Origin: an uncultured bacterium
GTDB taxonomy: Bacteria > Auribacterota > JACPWU01
Reading direction: 5' to 3'
DNA length: 32,000 nucleotides
NCBI GenBank assembly: GCA_964640155.1
Contig: CAZXEQ010000002.1
Coordinates: forward strand, 90,001-122,000
Positions within the stretch are counted from its first letter, which is position 1; every line of letters begins with the position of its first letter. The notes beneath the pieces are model-generated. The model was not told the origin of the DNA. It did not search any database and was given only the letters and a program-made list of their open reading frames with translations. Below, in pieces: positions 1 to 29,943 of this stretch. The position numbers and the translations under genes were made by a program.

Positions 1-610
1 TATGATGGATACGTTTTGATTTTTTCAATCGACCTAGATAAATAAACGTAGGAGAAATTTCTTTAGTGGGTAGACTGTCCTGTGCAGCAGCAAAAACACC
101 AGGAGAAAACACAGGAATTTCTCTCTTAACCCCTAATCGCATTAAATCCTTTTTTGAACTCTCAGAGATGGTCACACAATGTTCTTTACGATAAAAGCGA
201 AGATAAAGAAGCTCTGACATATATCCAACAAATGCGATTAAAAATGGAGTTTCATAAAACCATACTTCTCTCGCAAGCTGAAAAAAAAGCGTGATTCTCT
301 TTCCGCGAACATAAAAAGGGGTAAAAAAGGGGATCGTATTGATGCTATCAATCACACAATCATAGTAGGCATGTCCCCTTTTTCGATAATAACGGTAAGC
401 CTTCCAAACCACGGTAAGGCGATTACCTCTACGAATAATTTTGATTCCATCAATATCTTCTTCTGCAAGAGCTCCTGGGAAAGAGGAACAGAAGAAAGTT
501 ACTTCATGTCCTTTTTGAACCCATCTTTTGGCGATTTCATAAATATAAATTTCCGCACCTCCTCCAAAAGGATTACGGATATCTCGCCAATTTAAAATAA
601 GTATTTTCAT
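1..610 (-). CDS. Glycosyltransferase family 4 (GT-B fold), N-terminal part; 3' end runs off the window
   Basis: Absent from the ORF track because there is no stop in the window. Manual minus-strand translation from the ATG at 610-608 gives MKILILNWRDIRNPFGGGAEIYIYEIAKRWVQKGHEVTFFCSSFPG...EISPTFIYLGRLKKSKRIHH. It stays open to base 1 (203 codons). The sequence is a typical GT4 N-terminal Rossmann half. Confidence 0.8.
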   Translation of the reverse strand, partial: MKILILNWRDIRNPFGGGAEIYIYEIAKRWVQKGHEVTFFCSSFPGALAEEDIDGIKIIRRGNRLTVVWKAYRYYRKRGHAYYDCVIDSINTIPFFTPFYVRGKRITLFFQLAREVWFYETPFLIAFVGYMSELLYLRFYRKEHCVTISESSKKDLMRLGVKREIPVFSPGVFAAAQDSLPTKEISPTFIYLGRLKKSKRIHH

Positions 611-652
611 AAATGAAGATTTAGAAGGAAGACATCTTAATTAATAAATTTT

Positions 653-1567
653 CTAGCGATGCGTGACTATTCTAAGCTGAGTTTGAGTGGAAGAAGGATG
701 TTTTACTGTGTATTTATTCTTCATCAGAAAGAATGTATTTTCTTGAAGATCCAGACTCCCAATAAAATATCCAAAACCACCCATAGCAAACTTTAAAAAG
801 TGATAGAGAATAAAACCAATTCCAACGAAAGGATGCATCAAAAAGGTTTTCCAATGTCTAAAATATACACCTCTAAAAAAACTTAATTGCTTTTTAGATT
901 CAACTTTATTTTCTTTTCTAAAATGAACTAAATCTTTACCATAATGATAACATTTCATCATATGTTCCCAAATTCCTCGTGCCTCTCCCAGGTGCAATGC
1001 TTCTGCTTCTATATAACCTGTCTTATATCCAGCACGATTAAGCCTGTTCTGAAAATCATAATCCTCTCCAGCAATCATGTTTTCATTAAAACCATTCACT
1101 TTTTTGAAAATCTGTTTCTTGACAAATCTTGCGGAAGAATGAACTGGATCGTATTTGTACATATCTACTTCAAATTTTCGTATTTTGGCTATCCATGAGA
1201 TAGTCGGCTCTGGAGAATTATGAACAATGATTGCGTCGAATTCTTCTTGAATTTTCAGGACACACTCCTTTACAATATTCTTATCCAAAGCGAAATCTGA
1301 ATCTACTTTATAAATATATTTTCCTTTTGCTTTATTCACTCCAAAATTAACTTGTGCACTTCTTTCAGATCCTATCCGATAGATTTTTTTTGTATATTTC
1401 CTAGCAATTTCTAAAGTCTTATCCGTAGAATAATTATCTACAACAATTAACTCGATAAAGGGATAAGTTTGTTCACGAATGCTATTGAGACACTTTTCCA
1501 ACAATCTCTGAGAATTAAAGGTGGGAACAATGATAGAAACCAAAGGAGTTGATTGAGATGCTTGCAT
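653..1567 (-). CDS. Glycosyltransferase family 2 (GT-A fold)
   Basis: 304-aa ORF. The N-terminus VSIIVPTFNSQRLLEKCLNSIREQTYPFIELIVVDNYSTDKT is the classic GT2 signature, followed by a DSD acidic motif. A hydrophobic C-terminal tail is present. Confidence 0.9.
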   Translation of the reverse strand: MQASQSTPLVSIIVPTFNSQRLLEKCLNSIREQTYPFIELIVVDNYSTDKTLEIARKYTKKIYRIGSERSAQVNFGVNKAKGKYIYKVDSDFALDKNIVKECVLKIQEEFDAIIVHNSPEPTISWIAKIRKFEVDMYKYDPVHSSARFVKKQIFKKVNGFNENMIAGEDYDFQNRLNRAGYKTGYIEAEALHLGEARGIWEHMMKCYHYGKDLVHFRKENKVESKKQLSFFRGVYFRHWKTFLMHPFVGIGFILYHFLKFAMGGFGYFIGSLDLQENTFFLMKNKYTVKHPSSTQTQLRIVTHR

Positions 1568-1600
1568 ATAAAAAAACTTTCTTTCAAGTTAAAAAGAGAA

Positions 1601-2791
1601 TCAAAATAGTAATTTCTCACAAAGCTTTGAGTATGTCTCTTTCATTTTTTGAGCAACTTTATAGCCTGTGAAGTGACTTTCTGCTAATTCTTTACTGTTC
1701 TTCCCCATTTTCATTCTTAAATCTGTATTTGTTGCCAAAAGTACAATGGCTTCAACTAATGCTTCTGTATCCATGGCATTTACAACCAAACCTGCATTTT
1801 TATTAGTGACTTCTGTATGGATGCCAACACCATCAGACACAATTAATGGCAAACCACAATACATAGCTTCAGCAGCCGCAATACCAAAACTATCATACAA
1901 TGACGGTTGAACAAAAACATCCGTATCATGCTTTAAAAGCAACTCCTTTTGTTCCCCCTCAATAAAACCTCTAAAACTCACTCGAGAGTCCATTTGATAT
2001 TCATGGACACGACTCTTGAGGCAAAGAGAATACCCGTTTTTATCTGCCCCTGCAATGACAAGATATATCTGTGTTTTGTGGCAAAAATGAATCGCTTTTC
2101 TAAAAGCCTCGATTAAGAATCCCAATCCCTTTTCAGGTGCAATTCTACCAAGAAATGTAAAGGTCACCTTATCTTCTCTAACCTTTTTAGATAAGCCAGA
2201 AACAGAACAAAAGTTCTCTGTATCTATTGCATTGGGAATTACGCTTGAATTCGTATTTCCTGTCAAGGACATCGAGTGTTCTTTTTCCATTTCACTCCCA
2301 TAGAGAATCATAGCTGCATGACGAATTTCCCATTTTTCAAGAATTCGAAAATATATAGATTTCATTATTCGTCGAGGAGAAATAAAAGTTTCTTTCATAT
2401 AGGAACCATGAGGCTGAATTAAATAAGGAATTTTATAAAATCGACATAAAATAGAAGTGATCAAACTTCCAAAATAGAATCCCACATGGATATGAATAAA
2501 ATCATAATGTCTGATTTGTAATATCAATCCCTTTAAAAAACCCCAAGACCACCAATAAGGAAGCAACTTATTTAATTTACTTATTTTAAAAAAGCGAACA
2601 GGAACTCCTTTATAGTTTATAACTTTATGGAGGGGAACACCCATAGGCTGAAATTGATCATCTGCATCTGCTGCATAAATCGTAGCCAAAACATCTGACT
2701 TATTTAAATACTTAACCGTAGTCATACAACTAAATTGAGGACCTGTTCTAACAGCCCCAATTCCACCAATCACATGTAAAACTTTTAACAT
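1601..2791 (-). CDS. Glycosyltransferase family 4 (GT-B fold)
   Basis: The track ORF is 1601..2878. I prefer the internal ATG at 2791 (MLKVLHVIGGIG...), which matches the usual GT4 N-terminus. The C-terminal half carries the E-x7-E-like region (FVQPSLYDSFGIAAAEAMYCGLPLIVSD). The start choice is uncertain because neither candidate has a Shine-Dalgarno sequence. Confidence 0.85.
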   Translation of the reverse strand: MLKVLHVIGGIGAVRTGPQFSCMTTVKYLNKSDVLATIYAADADDQFQPMGVPLHKVINYKGVPVRFFKISKLNKLLPYWWSWGFLKGLILQIRHYDFIHIHVGFYFGSLITSILCRFYKIPYLIQPHGSYMKETFISPRRIMKSIYFRILEKWEIRHAAMILYGSEMEKEHSMSLTGNTNSSVIPNAIDTENFCSVSGLSKKVREDKVTFTFLGRIAPEKGLGFLIEAFRKAIHFCHKTQIYLVIAGADKNGYSLCLKSRVHEYQMDSRVSFRGFIEGEQKELLLKHDTDVFVQPSLYDSFGIAAAEAMYCGLPLIVSDGVGIHTEVTNKNAGLVVNAMDTEALVEAIVLLATNTDLRMKMGKNSKELAESHFTGYKVAQKMKETYSKLCEKLLF

Positions 2792-2895
2792 AACTTTTTT
2801 CTTTTTTAAATTATGAAAATAAAGACTATATTTTAGAAGACAAGCATCTGTCCGTCCAGATCTTTTGTAGGGATTCATAAATCATGAAGAAATGT

Positions 2896-2925
2896 TTGAC
2901 ATGTCTCCTGCGAGAAATGTAAAAT
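2896..2925 (+). promoter_or_regulatory. Near-consensus sigma70-type promoter (TTGACA - 18 nt - TAAAAT)
   Basis: TTGACA lies at 2896-2901 and TAAAAT at 2920-2925. This is about 30 nt upstream of the ATG at 2956, which has an AGGAG RBS at 2945-2949. Confidence 0.4.
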
Positions 2926-2955
2926 TTTTCTAAACTTCATGCAAAGGAGTTCCTC

Positions 2956-3201
2956 ATGCCCCCTAAAACAGATTTAAAAGACCTCAAAGACATCATGAGT
3001 GCGATTAAAGAAATTCAGGGAAACGTCAAGGATATGGTAGAAACATTTTCAAAAATCCCTTCTGGGAAACATCGAGGAGTTTCAGGCGATTTACTTCTTA
3101 CTACGAAAGAAAAAGAGGTGCTTAAACTCATCCAAACAGAACAAGAAAGAGCCAATAAATTGGTCGAAATGCTCTCGAATGCCCTCTATAATCAGGTTTG
3201 A
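2956..3201 (+). CDS. Hypothetical small protein (81 aa), charged and probably helical
   Basis: Complete ORF with a good RBS (AGGAG 6 nt upstream) and a candidate promoter. I recognise no family motif. Confidence 0.5.
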   Translation: MPPKTDLKDLKDIMSAIKEIQGNVKDMVETFSKIPSGKHRGVSGDLLLTTKEKEVLKLIQTEQERANKLVEMLSNALYNQV

Positions 3202-3338
3202 TTAATTGCTAATCATAACTACCTCTTACAAGCTTAATTATAAATTTTAAATCTTAAAAACTACTTCCTTCTGTTATTTTTTAATTTTTATAATATCTTC
3301 CTAATAAACAAGTTATAAACTCGTCATCTCTTCGTTCT

Positions 3339-3366
3339 TTGAAAAACCCAAAAAATATGATATATT
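3339..3366 (+). promoter_or_regulatory. Candidate promoter for the giant gene (TTGAAA - 16 nt - TATATT)
   Basis: Hexamers at 3339-3344 and 3361-3366 in the AT-rich 222-bp spacer. They overlap an 8-bp inverted repeat, acccaaaa/ttttgggt. AT-rich DNA produces such matches easily. Confidence 0.25.
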
Positions 3367-3423
3367 TTGGGTTGCGGTTTAACCCAAATTGATCATAACA
3401 ATAATGAGCGATAACCAAGTCAC

Positions 3424-6400
3424 ATGACCTCCATTTTTAGTCATAAATTTTGGCGTATTTTTGTGCTTATTGCCTTCGCCTTTCAAACCCTGACAAGCGA
3501 TGCATTCCTCACTTCTGTCAGTCAAAATCCTATTTCTATTAAACCCTTCACCTGGGCCGCTCATCTTGGAACTATTGTGGAACAATCTCAAGGCAGTCGT
3601 GGCCCATTTATCTTACATATTCAAGAAGCGCACTCTGTTCCTCAGGCTCAGAAAAAAATTGCTGAAATTATTCAGTGGTTTCAGAATCAAGGACTCTCAA
3701 AAGAATCTTTATCCATTGCTGTTGAAGGGGCTGTAGGACCTATCCCTACTTCCTTTCTTGGAAATTTTCCTTATGCCAAAGGGAGAGAAGAAATCACTCA
3801 AACTCTGATCGATGAAGGATGGCTCACAGGAGCCGAAGCTTTAGCTATTTCACATCCTGAATATCGTCTTCGCATTTTTGGTATTGAGGAATCTCAGGCC
3901 TATCTCAAAAATTTTTGGAGTTTTCGAAAGGCTCAAGCTGCTTGGCATCAAAAAGAATCTCAATGGAATGAACTAACCCAGATGCTTGATCAGACAAGGG
4001 AAAATGTTGATTCTCCTACGCTTCTTAGATGGAGTACACAGTTTTTTCATTTCAAAGATGGAAATTTAAGTTTTAAAGATTGGATTTCATTTTTAAATCA
4101 AGAAAAGTTTCATCCTCAAAATGAGCAAGCTCGGACTTTACTTCAAACTCTTCAACAAATTTCAGGAATGGATGAATCTGCCATCAAAAAAGAATTTATG
4201 GAGCTTTCAGAAAAAATTTCAAAGAAAAGTTCCAAGGAAGATTTAAAAAAATTCATTGAATTACAATTACGATTTCGCTTAGGGAAAATAGATTCGACTT
4301 CCTATTATGAAGAGCTCGCAAATGCATTAGACAAAAATGAACTATCTTTAAAAGATTTTCCACATCTTCAGAAAACCATTCAGTTACAACAAAAGTTAAG
4401 CGAAATAGAATGGGATAAAGCGCTAGAAACGCTTTTAAATGACGTCGAATCTCATATTCAAAATCATCTCATTAAAACAGAAGAAGAGCGCTCTTTGTGG
4501 GATTTCGAAAAATCCTTGCGCTTGGCTCAGCATGTCTTCCAATTGAAAGCTTCTAGAAAAGAGTGGGAGGAGTTTAAAAGGCCTGGCAGCATATCTACGT
4601 CATTCCGGCCCCGGATTCAAACACTCCGGGATGACAGGACTTCTCGTTTGTCATTCCCGAAGGTTTCTATCGGGAATCCATTCTTCTTAACTAAAGAAAT
4701 CTCTCAACTTTCCTGGTTTGAAAAATCAAATCTCTCATCAACTGAAAAAGAAAACTTTCTTAAAAATCATTATTTACTTTTAACTCTTTCTAAACAAGCT
4801 CAAGAATTTTATTATCATGCCGAAGAAAGAGACGAAATATTATTTAAAAATATTGAATCTCTTATCAAAAAAGAAAAACCTAAAGCGCTGATCGTTATAA
4901 CAGGCGGATTTCACACATCTCCCCTTCTTCAAAAATTAAAAGAAAAACATTTTAGTTTTTGTTCTGTCACACCACAAATGAGTGGAACTATTTCAGATGA
5001 ACTGTATTTAAAGCGCATGATGGATCAGACGCTTGAATCAAATAATTTTCATACAATCCCTTTAGCTTCTATTTTAAATCCTCTTTTTGATCTTTTGAAT
5101 CATGAAGCAGCTGAAAAACTGCGAAAAAATATCATGGGGCACTTTGTTGCCTGGGCTCGTAGAAATAATATTGCCCGTGAAGCTATTATTGCGCGTTGGC
5201 CGAAACCCAATATACCATCAGCCCCTGATCAAGCCCTCATCACAGCACTCTCCCAAGTTTGGGATGCGCCTATCACTGAGCTGCCTACCCAGGGAATCAC
5301 AGAAGAACAGACCAGAGAACTGGTCAAACTCGGAGAACCCATTTCTTCACTTTTGGAACAGTATTTGACTCAAATTCATGACAATAACTTATTAGAAATT
5401 GTAAAAGCAGAAAAAGATGACATTGACGATGAAATGCGGCTCGAAAGCGAACCAAATCTTTTAGTATTAATAAATAATCCTTTCATTCAACATATTCTTA
5501 AACGGCGAAAAAACCTAACTCGAGCCATCAAAGATGCCAGAATCGTTAAAAAGTTCTTGGTTTTTAATCGGTCAACTGTCAAAAGAATTTTTGACAGAAT
5601 CAATGCAATGCCCGATGAAAGAATTCTAGAAAAGATTAATAAATTTCTAGCAAGTAATTTGATCAATAACATTACAGGGCCCATCGAAGAATTTCTTAGA
5701 AGAGAAACTGTCGCTGATAATGACTTCCATCAAGTTTTTATGAATTGCGTTCACCATTTAATGACCCCAGATCTTCTTGATCAACCAAGGGAAATAGGAA
5801 AACGTTATCTCGCATATGTTGAATACGGTTACCTTTTATTGAAAGCTGTAGAAATTTTATCACGAACAAAACCTTATTTATTAAAAGTTACCCCGGCGAC
5901 CGTTCAAGTATCTGCCTCACCCACGAACATCCGAGACAAAGACGAAGCCATTTGCGAAGCCCTCACTGAAAGAATTTTTCAAGAAACGAATTTAGGTAGA
6001 ACAATTTATCCTAAGATTGATTGTGAAAAAGTCACATACAAACCTGTGGGCGGAGGGCATTTTACGCTTGAAGATGATGACATCACGGGACTTATTAAAT
6101 TTATCCGAATCGGCCCTCTATTTTTTATCGAAGAAGATATTTATCAGGGACTATCTTCGGATCTAAGAAAAGATTTAGGAGACAATGTCATTCGTTTAAC
6201 AAGTGTTAAAGGAGATATTGCCCCTCTCATGTATGGTAATTATACGCGAGCTGTGATTACCATGATGTTAAATAATGATTTTTCAGGGAAACGAGTTGTG
6301 GATGCAGGAGCAGGCAATGGAATTCTTTCACTTGTTGCATTAAAACTAGGAGCAACTTTTGTAGATTTAATTGATCACAGCATAGAGGAACTCGAGAGAG

Positions 6401-9400
6401 CCAAAGCACTTTTAGAGCTCAATGGTTTCGTCCCAGAAAAACATTTCTTATTACATATGCACGACCTCAAGAATCCTGACGCAATTCTTAAAGTATTATC
6501 ATCGCATGATGGAGAAACAGCTGTTATTTCCAATATTGGAACTCACCCCTATAATTATACTGTGACAAATGCGGATAGCATTCGTCTGGCCTCTAAAATT
6601 CCTCGCGTCACCCTTTTTATTGGGGGAGGGGATGAGGATACGGATGATTTTTCGCAAGCTAGATCTATAGATCAAGAACTCATCGGACAAGAAGGCTTTG
6701 TAGTACATCCCGTTATTTCGCGCATTCATGATTATGAAACCATCATCACCGCGTGGGCTGCGACGAAAAAAGTGGAAGAGAGAATTACCCCAAATGAACC
6801 TGAGGCTGATATCGAAGAAAAAGTCCAAAAAGCTCGAGAGAAAAATAAATCTGAAGAATGGGTAGGAAGAAAAAATGATCATGTTCTTACAACACTTAAA
6901 AAGCCATTTGAGAGGAGACATGTGGCTATTGGAGACGTGCATGGAGAACAATTCGCCGTTCAGCAAAACTTGAGAGATGCAGGATTAGTTGATGAAAATG
7001 ATGATTGGATTGGCGGTAATGCTATCGTGGTTCAATTGGGCGACATCATTGACCGTGGACCGCATTCCTACGAAGTAGATGTTTATCTTCGTAAGCTCCA
7101 ACAACAAGCCCGAAAGGCTGGTGGAAATGTCATCCGGCTTTTAGGGAATCATGAAGATATGTTTTTAAGAGGGATGCTAGGAGATAAGAAGCAATATAAC
7201 GATTGGTGGCTTGCTTGGACAACCTCTATGGCTTATCTATACAATCCTGCTTTTAATACCGCTTTTCAAAAAGTCGGTTACAACAACTTCCCTGATTTAA
7301 TTAAATCCGATACTCCTCCTGAAGACCCAGAACTTCTCAAATGGTGGCATCTTTATCGCAATCTTCTTACAGATATTGAAAATGGAAATATTCAAGCAGC
7401 ATACGAACATAATAATGTTCTCTTCACCCATGCGGGACTTAAGGGCAAAACAGGAATACTTCCTGCCTCCGACGGAAAAACAGCAGCAGCATATAATGCT
7501 GAACGCTTGAATGAAATATTAATAGATGAATATTTCAGAATAAAAAACCCACCACCTGGGGAGGAACAAATACCTCGCTCTCCCTTCCTGCTCTCGGCTC
7601 TTTGGAACAGAGCTCTTGATAGCTCCCCTGCTTTTGATTTACAAGTCGTCGCTCATGTTCCTAATCAAAATAATCGCAACATTCGCATTGGAGAAATTAA
7701 AGTGATCCGAACAGACATTGGTCAAAGTGCTGCAATGTATCAAGACAAAGGACGAAGAGGTTATGTAGATATTGAAGGGAATGAAGTTCGAGGGATTGAT
7801 TTAGCTAAAACCAGTGATCCTGTTTTACCTGAAGGGGTTCGTGGATACAAAGGAATTCCTAATGCTATACAAAATATCGGCAATGCAGTAGATAAGAAAG
7901 TTGATGAGGTATTAAGCAAGGCTATCGAAGTTGGTCCTACGAAAATTGTAGGGTTAACATTCGATGGTTCAATCGTAACCCAAAAGGCTTTTCCAAAAAT
8001 GGGATCTGGTCATGGGATTTCTTCTGAAAGCCTCCCTTCCCTTGCAGCCAATGAAGGTGTTTCCTTCACAGAAACTGAAATGGACAATCTCAAAAAAGTT
8101 TGGAGCAAAGTTATAGATCGAAACTTCCAACTCGGCATTTTAAGAGATGAAAATGTGATCTATCATGCGCAAGGCTCTGAAGAAATAGCCTACACGCATG
8201 CAGGCATTACAAAAGCTGGAGGAATATTCCGTGACGCCCAGCGCCGTATTTGGCTTACAGAAAATTTCCTCAAATGGCTGCTTAATAACGACACTGCTCT
8301 TCTCGAAAGAATCATTGAACATGATTTAAAACATTTGAATGATCCAGATTATAGGCATGATAACGATCTAGCCTATTACAATCCTTCGACTAAAAAAGGA
8401 TTATTAACCGATGTCAAATTAGCTGTATTACAAATGATTTTAGAAAGAACAGATAATGGACGCGCTGTCTTGATTGAAGATACTTCTGTAGAACCTTCTG
8501 ACGACTCTCTTGTAATGCAAGAAATGCCTATCGGAATCAGTCGAACTCTTACCTTGCTTGATGAACTCATTCAGGAACTCACGCCTAAAAAGGACCCGTT
8601 GCTTACTTATCTTCGTAAAATGAGAGAATCTATTAATGTCTTTGATGAATCTCCTTATGGTTCTTTAAACGTAGCCTCTGGGCTTCTAGCAATATCTTAT
8701 ATCCAAGATAAAATTTCTTTCTTAATAAATAAAGAAAAGTGGCCCCTTTGTTCTATGGATCTTAAAGATTTAAATCATCTTGATAAATTATTTTTAAAAG
8801 CAGCTCTTTATAAAGAAGCTCGTACATGGCAATTTATGGAAGATGAAATACCTCTTCAACTTCCTATTCGAGAAAGAATTCATACCGAATATGAAAGGCT
8901 AAGACAAGCTCTTGAAGATGGGGAAAAGATCTCTAGTCTTACTCCAGAACTTTTAGAAATGAGTCGAACTCTTTTAGCCATGCAAATTCATGCAGAATAT
9001 GTGGGTTATGAAGCCCAACGTGCTTTTGTAGCACAACATCTTCCTCAAGGAGCATCATCTGATTCCTTAGCTGCTCATGCTCGCAACCGTAGTCAAACGC
9101 GTGGCAAAGAAAGTCTAGGAAATTTGATTTCATCATTTTTAGATATGGTCTTGATTTCAGGACTGTATGGTATGGGGGCAGATGATACAGATAGAGGGTG
9201 GGAGCGAGGGGTCAAAATTTATTGTGCAGCACATTATTTACAAAATCGACATCTTTGGAAAGACCTTCTGGGAATTTCTTTGGAAGTAATCGAGAGGGAT
9301 GAAAACCAATCAGGAAGAGCAATTTTAGACCCTGAACAGGGGTTTACTCCGAATGGACCAGAAAGTCTTCCATTTTTAAGAAATCCTGCATATTTTGATC

Positions 9401-9738
9401 CTCGGCAAATTCCTGATCTTAGTCCCCTTGATATATCTGCCATTACAGCTAATAACATCGCGAATGCTATAAATAAATTTGCATCTAGAAAATTTTCTCC
9501 TCACTTACAACAACTTCTTGAACATTTGGTTGATTTAGATGTTCCTATAGAGTTTTTAATGATGGTTTTAGATCATCTTTCATCTGGAGATTCTAAATTG
9601 GCTAACGAATTAATTACAAAAATTTCCAAAACAAAACCTGAAGTCATTCATGCGCTCATACATTTTCCTGCTGAACAAGCTGCCGAAGAATTAATAATTA
9701 CACAAGATAGCTGGAGAAAGCTTCAAGAAGCAGCGTAA
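3424..9738 (+). CDS. Giant (2104 aa) multidomain protein: N-terminal signal/anchor, PrmA-like SAM methyltransferase module, PPP-family metallophosphatase module, large regions of unknown function
   Basis: One uninterrupted 6.3-kb ORF. The N-terminus FWRIFVLIAFAFQTLTSDA looks like a signal peptide or anchor. Catalytic motifs of two enzyme families sit mid-protein (see the sub-features). All nested ORFs on other frames are short. Confidence 0.85.
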   Translation: MTSIFSHKFWRIFVLIAFAFQTLTSDAFLTSVSQNPISIKPFTWAAHLGTIVEQSQGSRGPFILHIQEAHSVPQAQKKIAEIIQWFQNQGLSKESLSIAVEGAVGPIPTSFLGNFPYAKGREEITQTLIDEGWLTGAEALAISHPEYRLRIFGIEESQAYLKNFWSFRKAQAAWHQKESQWNELTQMLDQTRENVDSPTLLRWSTQFFHFKDGNLSFKDWISFLNQEKFHPQNEQARTLLQTLQQISGMDESAIKKEFMELSEKISKKSSKEDLKKFIELQLRFRLGKIDSTSYYEELANALDKNELSLKDFPHLQKTIQLQQKLSEIEWDKALETLLNDVESHIQNHLIKTEEERSLWDFEKSLRLAQHVFQLKASRKEWEEFKRPGSISTSFRPRIQTLRDDRTSRLSFPKVSIGNPFFLTKEISQLSWFEKSNLSSTEKENFLKNHYLLLTLSKQAQEFYYHAEERDEILFKNIESLIKKEKPKALIVITGGFHTSPLLQKLKEKHFSFCSVTPQMSGTISDELYLKRMMDQTLESNNFHTIPLASILNPLFDLLNHEAAEKLRKNIMGHFVAWARRNNIAREAIIARWPKPNIPSAPDQALITALSQVWDAPITELPTQGITEEQTRELVKLGEPISSLLEQYLTQIHDNNLLEIVKAEKDDIDDEMRLESEPNLLVLINNPFIQHILKRRKNLTRAIKDARIVKKFLVFNRSTVKRIFDRINAMPDERILEKINKFLASNLINNITGPIEEFLRRETVADNDFHQVFMNCVHHLMTPDLLDQPREIGKRYLAYVEYGYLLLKAVEILSRTKPYLLKVTPATVQVSASPTNIRDKDEAICEALTERIFQETNLGRTIYPKIDCEKVTYKPVGGGHFTLEDDDITGLIKFIRIGPLFFIEEDIYQGLSSDLRKDLGDNVIRLTSVKGDIAPLMYGNYTRAVITMMLNNDFSGKRVVDAGAGNGILSLVALKLGATFVDLIDHSIEELERAKALLELNGFVPEKHFLLHMHDLKNPDAILKVLSSHDGETAVISNIGTHPYNYTVTNADSIRLASKIPRVTLFIGGGDEDTDDFSQARSIDQELIGQEGFVVHPVISRIHDYETIITAWAATKKVEERITPNEPEADIEEKVQKAREKNKSEEWVGRKNDHVLTTLKKPFERRHVAIGDVHGEQFAVQQNLRDAGLVDENDDWIGGNAIVVQLGDIIDRGPHSYEVDVYLRKLQQQARKAGGNVIRLLGNHEDMFLRGMLGDKKQYNDWWLAWTTSMAYLYNPAFNTAFQKVGYNNFPDLIKSDTPPEDPELLKWWHLYRNLLTDIENGNIQAAYEHNNVLFTHAGLKGKTGILPASDGKTAAAYNAERLNEILIDEYFRIKNPPPGEEQIPRSPFLLSALWNRALDSSPAFDLQVVAHVPNQNNRNIRIGEIKVIRTDIGQSAAMYQDKGRRGYVDIEGNEVRGIDLAKTSDPVLPEGVRGYKGIPNAIQNIGNAVDKKVDEVLSKAIEVGPTKIVGLTFDGSIVTQKAFPKMGSGHGISSESLPSLAANEGVSFTETEMDNLKKVWSKVIDRNFQLGILRDENVIYHAQGSEEIAYTHAGITKAGGIFRDAQRRIWLTENFLKWLLNNDTALLERIIEHDLKHLNDPDYRHDNDLAYYNPSTKKGLLTDVKLAVLQMILERTDNGRAVLIEDTSVEPSDDSLVMQEMPIGISRTLTLLDELIQELTPKKDPLLTYLRKMRESINVFDESPYGSLNVASGLLAISYIQDKISFLINKEKWPLCSMDLKDLNHLDKLFLKAALYKEARTWQFMEDEIPLQLPIRERIHTEYERLRQALEDGEKISSLTPELLEMSRTLLAMQIHAEYVGYEAQRAFVAQHLPQGASSDSLAAHARNRSQTRGKESLGNLISSFLDMVLISGLYGMGADDTDRGWERGVKIYCAAHYLQNRHLWKDLLGISLEVIERDENQSGRAILDPEQGFTPNGPESLPFLRNPAYFDPRQIPDLSPLDISAITANNIANAINKFASRKFSPHLQQLLEHLVDLDVPIEFLMMVLDHLSSGDSKLANELITKISKTKPEVIHALIHFPAEQAAEELIITQDSWRKLQEAA
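4596..4680 (+). repeat. GC-enriched double-palindrome element lying in frame inside the giant CDS (MITE/REP-like)
   Basis: Two tandem units each begin GTCATTCC. Hairpin 1 pairs gtcattccgg (4599-4608) with ccgggatgac (4626-4635), 10 bp including one G-U. Hairpin 2 pairs attcccga (4653-4660) with tcgggaat (4670-4677), 8 bp. Local GC is clearly above the flanks. The element encodes SFRPRIQTLRDDRTSRLSFPKVSIGNP. Confidence 0.4.
6211..6630 (+). other. Domain: class I SAM-dependent methyltransferase, PrmA-like
   Basis: GNYTRAVITMMLNNDFSGKRVVDAGAGNGILSLVALKLGATFVDLIDHSIEELERAKALLELNGF contains motif I (VxDxGxGxG) followed by an acidic motif II. The later AVISNIG mirrors the PrmA layout (xVxANI). Confidence 0.7.
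6913..7730 (+). other. Domain: calcineurin-like / PPP-family metallophosphoesterase (lambda-phosphatase/Shelph-like)
   Basis: All three PPP signature motifs appear in order: IGDVHGE (GDxHG), LGDIIDRGP (GDxxDRG) and LGNHED (GNHE). The downstream metal-ligand histidines are in FTHAG and VVAHVP. Confidence 0.8.
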
Positions 9739-9870
9739 AAAATATTGTTTATCTTTCTTAAGAACACTCAAATCTCAACTTTCCATTTTCAAAAGCTTGT
9801 TCTCTCTGATATTCTAAGACTAATTTAAATCACTCACAAAACAGGGGGAAGAGATTTTAATCTCATACAC

Positions 9871-10893
9871 ATGCGCGTCGGGTTAACTTTCAATCTCAAA
9901 GATCCTCATGCAAACCCGGCAGACGAACAAGGGGCAGAATGGGACTCTCCTGAAACCATCAACGCCATTGTTCAGGCCTTATCAACAGAACATGTGGTTA
10001 TTCCCATTTTAGCGGATGAAGAGGCTTTTCCTAAACTCAAGAAAGAACGGCCTGATATTGTTTTTAACATCGCAGAAGGAAAGCTCGGGCCCAATCGCGA
10101 AGCCCATATTCCGGCCATGCTAGAATTTTTAGGGATCCCTTACACAGGTTCAGATCCTCTAACTTTAAGTATTTGCCTAGATAAAGCCATGACAAAAAAA
10201 GTTCTTAAGTTTAGCAATATTCCTACTCCCCCTTTTCAAGTGGTTCAAGAAGTTTCGCAGTTGAATGGATTTAATTCTTTTCCTGCTCTTGTAAAACCCT
10301 TATGGGAAGGCTCTAGCATTGGTATTCACAATGCTTCCTGGGTTGAAAACAAAAAAGAACTTGATACTCAAGTAAATCGTGTAACTGAGAACTATCATCA
10401 ACCTGCTATCATTGAACAAGCTGTAACCGGAAGAGAATTTACCGTTGCACTTTTAGGCAATGAAGAAAATCTGACCGTGCTTCCTATTGTTGAAGTCAGA
10501 CTTGATGTTCTTCCAACCCAAGCTCGTCCGATTTACTCCTACGAAGCCAAATGGATTTGGGATATCCCAGAAAAACCCTTAGAAATTTTTCAGTGCCCTG
10601 CTTTGATTGACAACCCATTAAAATTACAAATTGAAAAAATAGCAAAAGACGCTTTTAAAGCTCTTTCGTGTAGAGACTGGTGCCGCATAGATATTCGACT
10701 AGACGCTAAGGGGGAACCTCACGTTTTAGAACTGAATCCCCTGCCCGGTATTTTGCCAGATCCAAAACAGAATTCATGTTTCCCAAAAGCAGCTCGAGCC
10801 GCAGGACTCAGCTACACACAAATGATTTTCAAAGTTCTTGAGTCCGCCCTTCAACGTTATCATCTCGACTCTGAAAGAACGATCCATGCGTGA
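9871..10893 (+). CDS. ATP-grasp amide ligase, D-Ala-D-Ala-ligase-like but non-canonical (paralog 1)
   Basis: 340 aa. ATP-grasp core motifs are ALVKPLWEGSSIGI, IEQAVTGREFTVALLG and CRIDIRLDAKGEPHVLELNPLPG (Mg/ATP E-x-N). The N-terminus MRVGLTFNLKD lacks the Ddl GGxSxE(H/R)xVS motif. Confidence 0.85.
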   Translation: MRVGLTFNLKDPHANPADEQGAEWDSPETINAIVQALSTEHVVIPILADEEAFPKLKKERPDIVFNIAEGKLGPNREAHIPAMLEFLGIPYTGSDPLTLSICLDKAMTKKVLKFSNIPTPPFQVVQEVSQLNGFNSFPALVKPLWEGSSIGIHNASWVENKKELDTQVNRVTENYHQPAIIEQAVTGREFTVALLGNEENLTVLPIVEVRLDVLPTQARPIYSYEAKWIWDIPEKPLEIFQCPALIDNPLKLQIEKIAKDAFKALSCRDWCRIDIRLDAKGEPHVLELNPLPGILPDPKQNSCFPKAARAAGLSYTQMIFKVLESALQRYHLDSERTIHA

Positions 10894-11926
10894 GAAAAAT
10901 ACATCGAGAAAAATTGTAATCATCTATGATGCTACTCCTGATTCTCAACAAGACACAGAAATCAAGGCGGCATTGGACATTCTTAAAGACGTACAAAGCA
11001 TTCAAGGGATTCTGAATAAGGATGGATTCAAAACAGAAATCCTAGGGCTTCGTTTTCCACTGATGGAAAAAATTCAATATTTGATCGATTTCAAACCAGA
11101 TCTTGTTTTTAATTTATGTGAGGGGTTAGGAGAAAACAGCTCTTCAGAAATTCATGTGGCCTCTGTTTTAGAACTCTTTAATATCCCTTTTACAGGATCA
11201 GGCCCTCTTGCATTGGCGCTCTGCCATAACAAAGCTTTGACCAAAGCCATCTTAAATACTCATCACATTCCCACCCCTCAATATCTTGTCATAAAACCTG
11301 GTGATAAAATTTCAAAAAATGGATTGGGCTTTCCATTGATCGTAAAACCTATTCATGAAGATGGAAGTTTTGGAATTGAAGATGATTCTGTTGTTTCAAA
11401 TATGCAAGAGCTAAAAAATAAAACTATCATGATTCATAAAGTTTTTCATCAACCCGCTATCATTGAAGAATATATTGATGGTCGTGAATTTAATGTTTCT
11501 ATTTTAGGGAATAATTCTTTTGATTTTGTGCAAATGAGAGAAATTGAATTTTCCCCTTCTTCTGATGTTAAAATACTCAGTTTTAAATCTAAATGGAAGC
11601 AATCTAGTTTGGACTATCAAGCAACTCTTTCAACTTCCGTAAAACAACTTTCTAAATCTATTGAAAATAAAATCTTGTGCTTAGCTCAAGAATGTTTCAG
11701 AATCTTTAATATGAGGGATTACGCAAGAATTGATTTTCGCTTTGGGAAAAGCGAAGTCCCTTATGTGATTGATATTAATCCCAATCCCTGTATCTCTGAC
11801 GGATCAGGCATGGTGCTCGCAGCAAAACAAAATAAAATAAATTATGCAAACCTTATCCGAAAAATCGCTCATCTCGGGCTTGCAAGAAGTTCTGCCCTGC
11901 AAAGTTCGAGACGCCATTCTTTCTGA
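10886..11926 (+). CDS. ATP-grasp amide ligase, D-Ala-D-Ala-ligase-like but non-canonical (paralog 2)
   Basis: The track ORF starts at 10838. I prefer the ATG at 10886 (MREKNTSRKIVIIYD), which overlaps the upstream stop by 8 nt (ATGCGTGA). Motifs are LIVKPIHEDGSFGI, IEEYIDGREFNVSILG and ARIDFRFGKSEVPYVIDINPNPC. It is clearly paralogous to the preceding gene (PDLVFNLCEG...FNIPFTGSGPLALALCHNKALTK). Confidence 0.85.
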   Translation: MREKNTSRKIVIIYDATPDSQQDTEIKAALDILKDVQSIQGILNKDGFKTEILGLRFPLMEKIQYLIDFKPDLVFNLCEGLGENSSSEIHVASVLELFNIPFTGSGPLALALCHNKALTKAILNTHHIPTPQYLVIKPGDKISKNGLGFPLIVKPIHEDGSFGIEDDSVVSNMQELKNKTIMIHKVFHQPAIIEEYIDGREFNVSILGNNSFDFVQMREIEFSPSSDVKILSFKSKWKQSSLDYQATLSTSVKQLSKSIENKILCLAQECFRIFNMRDYARIDFRFGKSEVPYVIDINPNPCISDGSGMVLAAKQNKINYANLIRKIAHLGLARSSALQSSRRHSF

Positions 11927-12401
11927 CCGACAAAAAATTCAATCCATTTTAGAATCGGTGGGTGTTTTTAACTCCACAGAAGTGGAATGCGCTATTTCTT
12001 TGTTCGATATTTATATTAAAGTTGGCGCTAAGCCAGAAGAGTACATTTTCCTCTGTGCCGAAGATGCAGCAGGAAAAATCACTGGATTTCTTTGCTACGG
12101 AGAAGCCTCTTTAACGCATGGGACCTATGATCTTTATTGGGTTGCCACAGATCCTCTTCATCAAAAAAAAGGCATCGCTAGCCTTCTTATGAAAGCACTT
12201 GAAGAACAACTTCAAAAATTAAATGCTCGTTGGATACTCGCTGAAACATCCTCTCGCATAGAATATACATCCACGCGCCGATTTTACACCCAGCAAGACT
12301 ACAAAATTATTTCAACCATTCAAGATTACTACAATGCAGGTGATGATTTAGTTGTTTTTGGGAAAAGAATCTCGGCACGAGAAAAAGAAGCTAAGAATTA
12401 A
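11844..12401 (+). CDS. GNAT-family N-acetyltransferase
   Basis: 185 aa. The acetyl-CoA motif A is YWVATDPLHQKKGIASLLMKALEEQL (Q/R-x-x-G-x-A/G). The start is uncertain: the ATG at 11844 overlaps the upstream gene by 83 nt, and a TTG at 11880 is the alternative. Confidence 0.8.
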   Translation: MQTLSEKSLISGLQEVLPCKVRDAILSDRQKIQSILESVGVFNSTEVECAISLFDIYIKVGAKPEEYIFLCAEDAAGKITGFLCYGEASLTHGTYDLYWVATDPLHQKKGIASLLMKALEEQLQKLNARWILAETSSRIEYTSTRRFYTQQDYKIISTIQDYYNAGDDLVVFGKRISAREKEAKN

Positions 12402-12460
12402 ACATTTTTCGTTGAGAGAATAATCAATTAACGGTAGAATAAAGAAAAAGGGGGAATTGA

Positions 12461-13711
12461 TTGAAGGATAAAATCCTTAAATCGCTTGATGCCACGCAGG
12501 AACAATGGTCGGATTGGCATTGGCAAATGCGTTCTCGTTTTACAACCGCCAAAGAGCTCAAAAACTTTATTCATCTTTCTAAGGAAGAGGAAAAAGGGAT
12601 TGCATGGGCTTCTGATCAAAAAAATCTTCCACTTGCCATTCCTCCCTATTTTGTCTCACTGATGGATCCCAATGACCCCAATTGTCCTATTCGCCGTCAA
12701 GTCATCTGTCGCGTAGAAGAATCTTATGATGCTGTTTTTGATATGCAAGATCCTTGTGGTGAAGATTCTCACACCCCTGTCCCCAATCTGGTTCATCGCT
12801 ATCCCGATCGTGTTCTTTTAATTGCCACAGACCGCTGTCTTTCTTATTGTCGCTACTGCACCAGAAAAAGAATTGTAGGAACAGGTGAAGTCGGACTTTC
12901 CACCGAGAAACTCAACAAAATTTGTGAATATTTAGAAAAAACACCTCAAGTGCGTGACGTTCTGATTTCAGGCGGAGATCCTCTGATTCAGTCTGATGAG
13001 AGAATTGATCAACTTCTAGGTCGACTGAGAAAGATCAAACATCTTGAAATTTTGCGCATTGGAACAAGGGCTCCCATTTTTATTCCGCAACGTGTTACAT
13101 CCGATTTAGTTTCAGTTTTAAAGAAATATCATCCATTTATGATGAGCATTCACATCAATCATCCCAAAGAAATTTCAGAAGAGTCCAGCAAAGCCCTTCA
13201 AATGCTTGTGGACGGTGGCATTCCTTTAGGAAGTCAAACCGTTCTTTTAAAGGGAGTCAATGACCAACCCGAGATTGTCACCAAACTTTGCCATGAACTT
13301 TTGAAAGTCCGCGTCAAACCCTATTATCTTTATCAATGCGATCCTATTTTCGGAACCGAGCATTTCCGAACCAGTGTCGATGTGGGCGTCAAAATCATTG
13401 AAAAAATGAGGGGACATACGACAGGTTATGCGATTCCCACCTTTGTGGTAGATGCGCCTGGAGGCGGTGGGAAAATTCCTGTTGCACCTAATTATCTCAT
13501 TTCAAAAGTACGGGATAAAACCATTTTAAGAAATTATGAAAATAAGATTTTTGAATATCATGACCCCCTTGAAGTTGGGATTCAAAAGAAAAAGACCAAA
13601 ATAGATCATCACCTCCCTGTTCAACTCACCCTTCCTCTCAGTGTTGAGGCCCTCAAACCCTCTTCCAATACTAAATCTTCCAAACCTAAGCTCAAAAGCG
13701 CATTGAGATAA
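12461..13711 (+). CDS. kamA: Lysine 2,3-aminomutase (radical SAM / PLP), full-length KamA/AblA type
   Basis: 416 aa with a TTG start and an AAGGGGG RBS. The radical-SAM triad is CLSYCRYC (CxxxCxxC). The PLP-lysine loop is FVVDAPGGGGK. Close collinear resemblance to Clostridium KamA (HRYPDRVLL, VRDVLISGGDP, PYYLYQCD, EHFRT). Confidence 0.9.
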   Translation: MKDKILKSLDATQEQWSDWHWQMRSRFTTAKELKNFIHLSKEEEKGIAWASDQKNLPLAIPPYFVSLMDPNDPNCPIRRQVICRVEESYDAVFDMQDPCGEDSHTPVPNLVHRYPDRVLLIATDRCLSYCRYCTRKRIVGTGEVGLSTEKLNKICEYLEKTPQVRDVLISGGDPLIQSDERIDQLLGRLRKIKHLEILRIGTRAPIFIPQRVTSDLVSVLKKYHPFMMSIHINHPKEISEESSKALQMLVDGGIPLGSQTVLLKGVNDQPEIVTKLCHELLKVRVKPYYLYQCDPIFGTEHFRTSVDVGVKIIEKMRGHTTGYAIPTFVVDAPGGGGKIPVAPNYLISKVRDKTILRNYENKIFEYHDPLEVGIQKKKTKIDHHLPVQLTLPLSVEALKPSSNTKSSKPKLKSALR

Positions 13712-13754
13712 GTTTGATTAAATTTTTCTCTACAATCATTCTTGAAATCGTATA

Positions 13755-14765
13755 ATGGTTCGCTTTATGAATGAACGTCCATTTTTAGAAACAATCGATT
13801 TTGGCATCGCTTGGGAATGGGAGTATGATCAGGATTTCATCAAAAACCTGACACTCGCATGCGAAAAACATTCTCTCTCTTATCTCACCCTACATCCCAA
13901 AAATTTTGAAACAATCAAAAAGCGTGTTGATGAAGGCTCTCTTTCATTTCGAACTTTCTTAGATCGAGCCGGAGACACCTTAGAATATTTCAATCCTGTT
14001 GTAGAAAAACTACGCGCTAAGGGAACTTGGATTATCAATCATGCAAGTGACGTCGAAAGATCCCGTGATAAAGCGACAATGCATCTAGAATTTCTAACCA
14101 AAGGACTTGAAGTCCCTTTCACCGTCATCCTCTCTTCTTATGATAAAGACCCTGAACTTCGTTTTAGCGAACTTGAAAATCTGGGACGACCTTTCATCAT
14201 CAAACCCGCATGCGGCGCGGGTGGTTTGGGAGTAGTGATGGGGGCAGAAAATCTCTTAGATATTATTGAAGCTCGTAAAGAATATCGTCAGGATAAATAT
14301 TTGCTTCAACGTAAAATCATTCCCCGAAATTTGGGACCGCGCAGAGCTTGGTTTCGATCTTATTATGTATGCGGGAAAGTCATTTCATGTTGGTGGGATG
14401 ATCAAACACATCTTTATGATGTGATAACGCCTGAAGAAAATAATTTTTATCGCCTTTCAAAATTCAAAACCATCATGAAAACAATTTCTGAAGTCGCACA
14501 GCTTAATTTCTTTTCTTCAGAAATTGCCATTGATGCAGACAATAAATTTATCGTGGTCGACTACGTGAATGAACCCTGCGACATGAGAATCAAGTCTATT
14601 CATCCAGATGGAGTCCCAGACCTCGTGGTTCAAGAAGTCGTAGAAGCTTTAATTGTAGGAGTAAAAAGAGAATTAAAAAATCAACATATGAATACTTCTG
14701 CAATAAAACAGGCGGGGCCTTCTTTTCTTCAAAACGCCGGGAAACAGGTCAGCACAAAAATTTAA
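13755..14765 (+). CDS. ATP-grasp family ligase (third, divergent, RimK/GshB-like)
   Basis: 336 aa. It has the glycine-rich ATP-grasp loop FIIKPACGAGGLGVVMG, then YLLQRKIIP and a C-terminal metal-binding region, FSSEIAIDADNKFIVVDYVNEPCD. The ATG at 13767 is an alternative start. Confidence 0.75.
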   Translation: MVRFMNERPFLETIDFGIAWEWEYDQDFIKNLTLACEKHSLSYLTLHPKNFETIKKRVDEGSLSFRTFLDRAGDTLEYFNPVVEKLRAKGTWIINHASDVERSRDKATMHLEFLTKGLEVPFTVILSSYDKDPELRFSELENLGRPFIIKPACGAGGLGVVMGAENLLDIIEARKEYRQDKYLLQRKIIPRNLGPRRAWFRSYYVCGKVISCWWDDQTHLYDVITPEENNFYRLSKFKTIMKTISEVAQLNFFSSEIAIDADNKFIVVDYVNEPCDMRIKSIHPDGVPDLVVQEVVEALIVGVKRELKNQHMNTSAIKQAGPSFLQNAGKQVSTKI

Positions 14766-15073
14766 CTTCTCTCCCTATCAAGATCTTCAAATTTATAAAT
14801 AATCTCTTTAGGCTTAGCCATTCCTAATTCTTCGCGAGCGACTTTTTCAATATACAGAGGATCTGATTTGAGTCGTCCGATTTCTTCCTGAAGATTTTGA
14901 TTTTGAGTTTGCAAACTTTCAATCTCATCTTCCAAAACTTGAATCTGCTGATAAACTCTAGTTAATCTTAAGAAGTTCGGAGAAAAAACATAAATCAAAA
15001 GCGCAAAAATCACCGCGCCAAAAACAATGTTTTTCCAACCATCTTTCTTCATGAAAAACCCTAAACGGTTCAC
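14762..15073 (-). CDS. ftsB: Septum formation initiator, FtsB/DivIC family
   Basis: One N-terminal TM helix (IVFGAVIFALLIYVF), then a coiled coil (LEDEIESLQTQNQNLQEEIGRLKSD) and the family C-terminus YIEKVAREELGMAKPKEIIYKF. The track start at 15073 is a GTG; the ATG at 15052 is equally plausible. Confidence 0.8.
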   Translation of the reverse strand: MNRLGFFMKKDGWKNIVFGAVIFALLIYVFSPNFLRLTRVYQQIQVLEDEIESLQTQNQNLQEEIGRLKSDPLYIEKVAREELGMAKPKEIIYKFEDLDRERS

Positions 15074-15117
15074 CTATTATCCGGTAACCGGTAAACTGGC
15101 TAACCGGCAAACTAATT

Positions 15118-16487
<1,370 letters not shown>

Positions 16488-16545
16488 GATTTTTTATCAA
16501 ATATACTTTGTTTGATCTCGGAGATTAAAGTATGTCCTTTACAAT

Positions 16546-16731
16546 ACGGGTGACACTCGGCGGGGAGCCCCCCGCCGCGCGCAATTTTTCATGAGCACGG
16601 TGGGGTTGACGAGTGGCAGGACCCGTTTCTTACATAATCCTAAAGGACGGCGAAAAGCCCGAGGACACACTTTTATATACGGAATCAACCATGTCTCAGG
16701 GGCAGGTTTCGATTGACGTAGCCCAAACAGC
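16546..16731. other. GC-rich, highly structured 185-bp island of unknown class (candidate ncRNA, cis-regulatory leader or inserted element)
   Basis: Sharp GC jump in an AT-rich spacer. Nested helices: acgggt (16546-51) with acccgt (16621-26); cactcg (16554-59) with cgagtg (16610-15); and an 8-bp G/C hairpin cggcgggg/ccccgccg (16558-16577) followed by TTTTT at 16585-89. A second bulged helix pairs cccgag-aca with tgtctc-aggg. The island is flanked by the 11-bp direct repeat cctttacaata (16536-46 and 16732-42). Confidence 0.4.
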
Positions 16732-29744: not shown

Positions 29745-29943
29745 ATTTATTAACTCCTCCCTTTGATAATAGGGATATACCATGCAAAACCCCTTTTGTC
29801 AAATAGAGCAATTTAACTTGTTCAGAAACAAATAGTTATAAAAATTACCTTCAAAAGATAAAAGATCGTTTAAAACAAAAACATCGACTTAAAAACAGAA
29901 AGTTGCTAGTCTTTCAACCTTCTTAGAAAGAAAGGAGAATGTT

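Follow-up and report, generated by a model that had tools for sequence, protein, structure and literature searches.

A predicted Sec-targeted modular protein of 2104 residues carries a PrmA-like methyltransferase core and a Shelph-type phosphatase behind a candidate TIKI-like head

We analysed a window of 32,000 nucleotides (positions 90,001 to 122,000 of contig CAZXEQ010000002.1, assembly GCA_964640155.1) from an uncultured bacterium placed by GTDB in the Auribacterota (JACPWU01), in which one gene, at 3424..9738 on the forward strand, encodes a protein of 2104 amino acids (aa). The explanation that we favour, with moderate confidence, is that the product is a Sec-targeted modular multi-enzyme protein. 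It would belong to a family whose members share a signal at the N-terminus, a head domain of some 500 residues with a TIKI-like residue set and a helical C-terminal end closing in small residues, with swappable enzymatic cargo in between. Here the predicted cargo comprises a PrmA-like methyltransferase, a Shelph-type metallophosphatase of the PPP family, a zincin-like H-D-x-x-H module and a helical module. The family is so far named only from Candidatus Omnitrophica metagenome-assembled genomes (MAGs).

The open reading frame (ORF) starts with ATG, spans 2104 codons plus a stop and is the sole long ORF in the region, uninterrupted and without internal stops, as a preliminary description of this stretch had reported. 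A Logan assembly of SRR8893623 matches window positions 1-16562 at 100% over 16,562 bp, with the whole gene included, so that the same protein stands on an independent assembly; it is also recorded on a 501,885-bp database contig. GC content is even over the ORF and its flanks, and no tandem repeats of note were found within the gene. Its unusual length and unique domain adjacency are what would be expected of an artefact, either an assembly chimera or separate genes called as one, and this was the concern that the preliminary description itself had raised. No sign of a chimera emerged when it was sought. Because the ORF is intact, its composition even and the two assemblies equal base for base over 16.5 kb, we consider the chance of such an artefact negligible. 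The related protein P0146, which lies on another contig, moreover keeps the order of head, methyltransferase and tail (P0001-P0022, P0143-P0148 and P0150 are labels of related proteins in this analysis).

The family is defined by its head (residues 1-540), which is common to about 25 proteins of 1.2-5.6 thousand amino acids (kaa). A search with the whole protein returned 21 distant relatives of 1.2-3.6 kaa, which are 20-27% identical to it and align only to residues 1 to ~540, and the closer relatives P0143 and P0146 show 39% identity over the head plus an adjoining extension. Three relatives carry an organism name, all of them Candidatus Omnitrophica MAGs, and a scan of the GTDB representative genomes with the full 2104-aa protein found no relative. 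The precomputed Pfam cargo of the relatives varies widely and includes MidA and other methyltransferases with HATPase_c, phosphoglucomutase with UDPGP, CN-hydrolase, HEAT with choline kinase, GT2, GT1 with starch synthase, signal peptidase II, GNAT and glutamate dehydrogenase (cargo identifiers among the distant and closer relatives taken together: PF02518, PF00583, PF02878-80, PF00534/PF08323, PF00208, PF01636 and PF01252).

BLAST comparisons with the seven proteins matched by the C-terminal region split the 2104-aa protein into at least seven modules. P0146, the closest relative, shares the head, the methyltransferase module (58% identity) and the tail, but has an APH-type kinase (Pfam E 9e-22) where our protein has its phosphatase, and P0143 has an M50-like membrane protease segment instead. 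Searches with the phosphatase, the methyltransferase and the C-terminal region found the methyltransferase-PPP adjacency in no other protein, and since P0146 and P0143 carry a kinase and an M50-like segment in place of the phosphatase, the adjacency is unique among the sequences found. The preliminary description knew of no fusion with this architecture. That holds for the adjacency itself, but not for the implied isolation: judged by these comparisons, the methyltransferase-PPP fusion is one result of modules being shuffled between a head and a tail that stay fixed. P0143 and P0146, found on different contigs of one sample (SRR22387960), may be paralogs within a single genome.

The head domain proper (aa 40-540; 3541..5043, +) is the most conserved part of the family. 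An AlphaFold2 (AF2) model built from the family alignment (pLDDT 78, pTM 0.72) shows an alpha/beta core that is split by a helical insert of ~300 aa (aa 157-455). Across 14 aligned heads the invariant columns are A69-H70, Q76, E101-G102, Y160, R469, G494-G-F-H497 and P517, and position 68 is E or D, which leaves our protein with a catalytic-like set of E68-x-H70, E101, R469 and G494-G-F-H497. In the TIKI-family endopeptidase RRSP, the catalytic set consists of Glu3900-x-His3902, Glu3930, Arg4001 and His4030 (PMC6254334). The head pattern [E/D]xH...E...R...GGFH matches these two His, two Glu and one Arg in order, with spacings of 31 and 28 residues versus 28 and 29 in RRSP.

Various heads also gave sub-threshold Pfam matches to DUF5694 (E 1.2e-3), Erythro_esteras (0.024), TraB_PrgY_gumN (0.042), DUF5682 and Cofac_haem_bdg (0.24), the last of which is annotated in Pfam as 'Tiki superfamily, ChaN'; those matches whose coordinates were inspected fall on the R...GGFH segment. 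The top Foldseek match of the head model is HopBA1 (E 0.53, probability 0.51), with EreC lower in the list, and HopBA1, Bcr135, ChaN and PMT are among the known TIKI-superfamily structures (PMC6254334). Thus, the head resembles the TIKI, TraB, PrgY, ChaN, erythromycin-esterase and RRSP proteins in residue order, near-equal spacing, predicted alpha/beta core and weak Pfam and Foldseek matches, and differs from the superfamily in its ~300-aa helical insert and in showing no significant profile or fold match. On this evidence we think it fairly likely that the head is a hydrolase of the TIKI/TraB/ChaN-superfamily type. Much of the N-terminal 900 residues had been described as lacking any nameable motif, a statement that does not survive the recognition of a conserved head with a TIKI-like residue set. 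The head is followed by an extension (aa 541-669; 5044..5430, +; RWPKPN..., VRELVKLGEP...) kept only in the close subfamily, at 39% identity to P0143 1-637 and P0146 43-670.

The methyltransferase module (aa 826-1137; 5899..6834, +) consists of an N-terminal subdomain and a PrmA-like class-I core that would bind S-adenosylmethionine (SAM), and has homologs in P0146 and P0150. The core carries motif I (VVDAGAGNG, aa 958-966, nt 6295-6321), DLID (981-984, with the post-I acidic residue), SNIG (1036-1039) and FIGGG (1065-1069), and therefore has both the GxGxG motif I and the acidic residue ending strand 2 that mark class-I SAM enzymes. Its best hidden Markov model matches are PrmA models, in Pfam at E 4e-4 and 20.4 bits, just under the gathering score of 22, and in NCBIfam at E 3.9e-7 and 29.5, far below the cut-off of 188. 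A search of the PDB with the methyltransferase part returned PRMT1/Hmt1 at E 1.2e-5. These profile matches are short (~aa 945-1007) and cover only positions ~155-213 of the 296 in the PrmA profile, and neither a full-length PrmA match nor the L11-binding, substrate-binding N-domain of PrmA was detected.

Three homologs of the module were found in the databases searched, namely P0146 (58% identity), P0150 (42%) and P0005 (29%). All three keep motif I, the post-I acidic residue, DLKNP, (A/S)NI and the G-rich strand (FIGGG); P0150 carries a PF06325 annotation, and the module of P0146 (residues 1915-2230) passes the Pfam PrmA cut-off at 28.8. A PADLOC scan gave nothing but a generic methyltransferase match, mad2. 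Our protein thus shares with PrmA (PF06325) a class-I core with motif I, the post-I Asp, (A/S)NI and the G-rich strand after it, and differs in its partial match, its scores under the Pfam and NCBIfam cut-offs and its apparent want of the L11-binding domain. The PrmA-like layout proposed in the preliminary description, at 6211-6630, is accordingly right in its coordinates, its catalytic core and its intact motifs and does not extend beyond that core; by its motifs and profile scores, the module reads as a PrmA-like methyltransferase core, not as a PrmA ortholog. Its substrate may be a protein, at a lysine or an N-terminal amine.

Downstream lies a Shelph-type PPP metallophosphatase domain (aa ~1163-1480; 6910..7863, +), identified by Pfam, PDB and Foldseek matches and by its motifs. 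All five metal and catalytic motifs are present: GDVHG (1170-1174), GDIIDRG (1206-1212), GNHE (1241-1244), THAG (1335-1338) and VAHVP (1409-1413). The Pfam Metallophos match (PF00149) reaches E 1.5e-8 and 35.8 bits against a cut-off of 21.5, and a PDB sequence search returned the cold-active protein-tyrosine phosphatase of Shewanella (1v73/2z72, E about 1e-13) together with Rhizobiales-like phosphatase 2. AF2 models the PPP core with confidence, and the Foldseek matches of this model are led by 1v73 (E 2.9e-8) and 5vjv (1.5e-4), with PP5, calcineurin and the Legionella effectors WipB and WipA lower down. A profile built from 21 homologs places THAG 1335-1338 on vHgG and VVAHV 1408-1412 on ViGHt, which holds the last His of Shelph; the C-terminal half is divergent in this alignment (10.6 bits). 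An apparent loss of the last PPP His in a MAFFT alignment was rejected as a misalignment on the strength of the same profile.

Because every motif is present and 1v73, 2z72 and 5vjv are the closest relatives, the domain is a Shelph-type PPP with a complete catalytic set, as the preliminary description had it at 6913-7730, and the profile alignment shows none of the catalytic degeneration that had been considered there. All PPP motifs are common to Shelph/SLP (1V73, 2Z72) and Rhizobiales-like phosphatase 2 (5VJV), which are the best sequence and fold matches. Their Shelph relatives are typically stand-alone proteins of ~370 aa, whereas this one forms part of a 2104-aa chain, with an insertion following GNHE, ~25 fewer residues ahead of the last His and AH in place of GH. 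All 330 database matches of the segment (330/330) cover the phosphatase part only, and the relatives listed are mostly ~360-420 aa long, some longer and with TPR or other extra domains. Those stand-alone Shelph homologs that were aligned begin, by eye, with short hydrophobic, signal-peptide-like stretches, which fits an extracytoplasmic site. The solved relatives are deposited as protein-tyrosine phosphatases, and we suggest that the domain is a binuclear-metal enzyme that probably acts on phosphoproteins, possibly on phosphotyrosine. WipA and WipB likewise have the PPP fold and are secreted effectors, but the matches to them are weak (E 4e-3 to 0.2), and they differ in secretion route and architecture.

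The remaining sequence also resolves for the most part into modules. An orphan stretch (aa 670-825; 5431..5898, +) gave no match in homolog and family searches. After the phosphatase comes the H-D-x-x-H module (aa 1482-1671; 7867..8436, +), with the signature AYTHAG..GGIF..RRIW..ENFLKWLL..H-D-L-K-H-L-N-D-P-D-Y-R-H; it has two homologous copies in P0143, one of which reads HELRH, and one in P0144. Asp here takes the place of the catalytic Glu, and the module is possibly a degenerate zincin of the HExxH type. Its first part, IQNIGNAVDKKVDEVLSKAIEVGPTKIVGLTFDGSIVTQKAFP (aa 1482-1528, window 7867-8010), weakly resembles the AbrB/MazE/SpoVT swapped hairpin (PDB 7d2n, E 0.19) and is followed by the zincin-like H-D-L-K-H signature. 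Module X (aa 1692-2007; 8497..9444, +) is helical and 27-29% identical to P0145 669-1008 and P0147 658-986, in both of which its counterpart comes directly after the head. The chain closes with a conserved tail (aa 2022-2104; 9487..9735, +) that ends in KLQEAA and is 35-45% identical to the C-termini of P0143, P0146 and P0148. Neither the H-D-x-x-H module nor module X nor aa 540-830 had a Pfam match at E up to 10, and an exhaustive HMMER search with residues 1470-2104 gave only seven matches. The earlier count of more than 1200 unassigned residues therefore stands as far as Pfam and NCBIfam are concerned, but most of that sequence splits into modules with homologs.

Where such a protein would act depends on its N-terminus. 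Residues 12-30 form the only strongly hydrophobic stretch of the whole chain (Kyte-Doolittle value 1.65), with K8 and R11 before the core and the small-residue sequence TSDA|F after it. By inspection, this gives a predicted Sec signal peptide (aa 1-27; 3424..3504, +) with an n-region containing K8 and R11, an h-region IFVLIAFAF and a c-region TSDA|F, in the layout of signal peptidase I substrates, namely a positive n-region, an h-region 8-12 residues long and, at -3 and -1, small residues (S25-D-A27|F). The hydrophobic N-terminal signal noted in the preliminary description is thus supported, and an N-terminal hydrophobic segment is present in all family members. The sequence fits a Sec signal peptide, and from it we infer export of the 2104-aa chain by Sec.

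Several points weigh against the reading of an exported multi-enzyme protein with a TIKI-like head. The assignment of the head reaches significance in no single test, as Pfam scores lie below their cut-offs and the best Foldseek E is 0.53, and no TIKI member turned up when the sequences of the PDB were searched with the head by itself, with its full profile or with a profile from which the insert had been deleted. The AF2 model of the methyltransferase part is poor (pLDDT 30-50) and was not used for the fold; it stayed below pLDDT 50 because a homolog search with that module alone returned a single fragment. No secretion system or delivery apparatus is encoded beside the gene in this window. 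Finally, methyltransferases need SAM, which is absent outside cells, and many cargo domains of the family need ATP, acetyl-CoA or NAD; these needs speak for a site in the cytoplasm, unless the protein gets into another cell. As a methyltransferase works only where SAM exists, this points either to action in another cell or to a scaffold that stays at home.

In the latter case the N-terminal segment would be an uncleaved anchor, and the enzymes would be located at the membrane's cytoplasmic face, methylating and dephosphorylating proteins of their own cell. The methyltransferase, together with the kinase, HATPase, GNAT and dehydrogenase cargo of the relatives, would there find its cofactors, and the regulatory content of 'Module 1' in long Omnitrophota proteins has, in a 2026 preprint, been read as compatible with the cytoplasmic face (10.64898/2026.06.07.730766). 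The topology argues otherwise. With K8 and R11 before the core, the C-terminal bulk lies outside by the positive-inside rule; the h-region has only ~10-12 residues and runs into the cleavage-like TSDA|F; the 2104-aa protein has no second transmembrane (TM) segment that could return the chain inward; and the N-termini of stand-alone Shelph relatives look, by eye, hydrophobic and signal-peptide-like. We therefore regard a tethered cytoplasmic scaffold as a serious alternative, though an unlikely one.

A further alternative is that the protein is a largely non-catalytic surface or adhesion protein, in which enzyme-like domains serve as binding modules (pseudoenzymes). Giant Omnitrophota ORFs have been proposed to be adhesins or coats (PMC10066038), and both the Asp in place of the catalytic Glu in the zincin-like module and the divergent C-terminal half of the PPP domain (10.6 bits) would suit such a role. 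The five PPP motifs are conserved, however, as are motif I and the post-I residue of the methyltransferase, and neither adhesin-type repeats nor adhesin-type domains were detected, which leaves this alternative with a small chance in our estimate. Both enzyme domains keep intact motifs behind a Sec-like N-terminus. The effector-like or surface-enzyme interpretation put forward in the preliminary description remains the leading one.

The joints between modules and the C-termini show regularities of their own. The end of the chain reads [AS][AL] in 23 of the 28 family sequences checked (P0001-P0022 and P0143-P0148), across tails that otherwise look unrelated (for example QEAA, QRAA, AQAA, LSAA, LAAA, LQAA, LTSA, ATSL and GKAL). 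In all, 43 copies of an RSEVR-like motif, [RK][SA]E[VMLIST]R, are spread over 15 members, among them P0012, P0015, P0022, P0004, P0019, P0020 and P0016, with seven sites in P0012 versus 0.12 expected. A site that directly follows the head, where there is one, falls at about residue 530-640, and the later ones are mostly separated by 200-600 residues; in about half of the cases the residue just ahead of the motif is A, G, S or L, compared with a background of 31%. In the P0145/P0147 subgroup [SAGQ]SLG replaces RSEVR, with five occurrences in P0145 and ten in P0147, and in the subgroup of our protein NI[GA]NA is found at aa 1484 and 2011 (two sites versus 0.064 expected). These motifs and C-terminal regularities suggest defined joints between modules, and as sequence patterns they are compatible with proteolytic processing. 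NIGNAVD, at first read as an inter-module cleavage motif, is given less weight than RSEVR and SSLG, because the weak MazE/AbrB match explains it more plainly in this subfamily: it may merely begin such a fold (E 0.19, with a plausible residue correspondence), which also counts against the reading set out above. The [AS][AL] ends recall the small-residue C-termini recognised by tail-specific or ClpX-type proteases.

A bolder version of the exported multi-enzyme protein can be drawn from these patterns. The family members may be self-processing polyproteins, in which a protease in the TIKI-like head would cut at RSEVR-like, SSLG and possibly NI[GA]NA joints, the C-terminal [AS][AL] would mimic the product side of such a cut, and the freed enzymes would act in or on a host or prey cell. 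We consider this speculative and rather improbable. MARTX toxins provide an analogy of design, not of homology: they too are large exported proteins with several unrelated effector enzymes, they include the TIKI module RRSP and they are cut by a built-in protease. Unlike them, our protein gave no Pfam match to RTX repeats or to the inositol-hexakisphosphate-activated cysteine protease domain of MARTX, and no type I secretion genes lie near its gene. No indexed paper combines 'Omnitrophota' with 'polyprotein'.

Long and giant proteins with many enzyme domains have been reported from Omnitrophota, as the 'Archaeovorin' type (West-Roberts et al. 2023, bioRxiv 10.1101/2023.11.21.568195) and as class 1 'multi-enzyme clusters' (bioRxiv 10.64898/2026.06.07.730766). 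According to the available passages of these surveys, the recurrent contents of the multi-enzyme class are methyltransferase, HATPase_c, GNAT, phosphoglucomutase and GT1/starch synthase domains, and 94% of its long members have a signal peptide or TM helices. The same passages describe the N-terminal regions of the giants as generally without identifiable domains, except for C39 and S8 peptidases, which their authors suggested may cleave the giants. Our protein likewise combines several unrelated enzyme domains and a predicted signal peptide in a single polypeptide, and it resembles the giants in that many unrelated enzyme domains are tiled along the chain behind an N-terminal signal. The cargo of the family is, as far as those passages go, the repertoire of 'Modules 1 and 2' of long Omnitrophota proteins, with methyltransferase, HATPase_c, GNAT, phosphoglucomutase, starch-synthase/GT1, signal peptidase II and HEAT domains in common.

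The protein differs from the giants in being 5 to 40 times shorter and without internal TM helices; at 2104 aa it falls under the thresholds for giants, set at 10 kaa or more in the 2026 catalogue and at more than 30 kaa in the 2023 definition. It is thus best read as a small member of an already reported multi-enzyme kind, and not as a new class. This analysis adds a division of the protein into modules and three features of the family, namely the putative catalytic residues of the head, the C-terminal dipeptide and the junction motifs. The passages of the 2023 and 2026 papers that were available mention no conserved or TIKI-like head, [AS][AL] end or junction motifs, and no mention of 'TraB' was found in the 2026 preprint.

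The gene has a promoter-like site at 3339..3366 (+), TTGAAA-16-TATATT with TG before the -10 element, 58 nt upstream of the start codon and recognised by its match to the consensus only. A seven-codon mini-ORF, ATGAGCGATAACCAAGTCACATGA (window 3405-3428), shares ATGA with the start codon of the large gene, and the divergent intergenic region also holds an 81-aa ORF without family match (2956-3201, +), which the public record calls as a gene too. Divergent genes upstream encode GT4 and GT2 glycosyltransferases.

Downstream, on the same strand, lies a cassette of five genes: two Ddl-like ATP-grasp ligases (9871-10893 and 10838-11926, +), a GNAT protein (11844-12401, +), a radical-SAM aminomutase of the KamA family (12461-13711, +) and a RimK-like ATP-grasp protein (13755-14765, +). 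The second Ddl-like gene has a listed TTG start, which gives 362 aa and an overlap of 56 nt with the first; the public call (15104-16144 of locus L001) starts later and gives 346 aa, so its start is uncertain. The three ligases suggest that the cassette makes a peptide or polymer containing beta-amino acids. The aminomutase scores 479.7 on the AblA equivalog model, whose cut-off is 525.4, and also scores well on models of glutamate and arginine 2,3-aminomutases; for this reason the 'beta-lysine' of the preliminary description is a plausible reading, not an established one.

Could the large protein be the functional partner of this cassette, encoded in one operon with it and modifying or exporting its product? 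The common strand, a gap of just 132 nt and the absence of a terminator-like hairpin between 9738 and 9871 would be expected in that case. Yet the loci of P0010, P0146, P0143 and P0004 have no neighbours in common with the window (4/4), so that the cassette lies beside the gene in none of the four relatives (0/4), which weakly refutes the idea; nor is there a biochemical link between a protein methyltransferase and phosphatase and a set of amino-acid ligases. The position directly upstream of the cassette was correctly described, but its linkage is not conserved and the aminomutase falls below the AblA cut-off. Since the four loci lack it, we treat the adjacency as incidental and give a functional partnership a very slim chance.

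Other features of these loci are recorded for completeness. P0143 lies 2 kb downstream of genes for ParA-like, PilM, PilO and GspD-type secretin proteins (2650-8034 of locus L084), and its pilM, pilO and secretin genes recall the secretion loci reported near giant Omnitrophota genes. In the window, 18 kb downstream of the large gene, lies a gene for a 581-aa FG-GAP repeat protein (28038-29783, -); proteins with such repeats are typically extracellular or adhesion-related. An enolase gene (15118-16446, -) is 62-69% identical to its best matches among GTDB species representatives, which fall in many different phyla (Clostridia, Auribacterota, Acidobacteriota and others), and with matches at this level only, the source lineage has no close GTDB species representative.

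Omnitrophota and other host-dependent nanobacteria have giant and large multi-enzyme proteins as a hallmark, and the questions that these proteins raise concern their export, their possible cleavage and their role. For the exported multi-enzyme protein that we favour, the steps would be as follows. The signal peptide would carry the chain over the inner membrane, and the protein would be active at the surface of the cell, or in a partner or prey cell in which SAM can be found, so that target proteins there may be methylated and dephosphorylated. The phosphatase would work outside the cytoplasm of the producer, as its stand-alone relatives look secreted, and the putative hydrolase of the head may cut the chain itself or its targets. 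A member of 2.1 kaa with one hydrophobic segment is small enough for expression and dissection, and it offers three handles on these questions, namely the putative catalytic residue set of the head, the C-terminal dipeptide and the recurrent junction motifs. If the family did prove to consist of self-processing polyproteins, it would stand as a bacterial counterpart to viral polyproteins and MARTX toxins and would offer a key to the mechanism of the giant Omnitrophota proteins; and if both processing and delivery hold true, the methyltransferase-phosphatase pair would represent a new type of effector payload.

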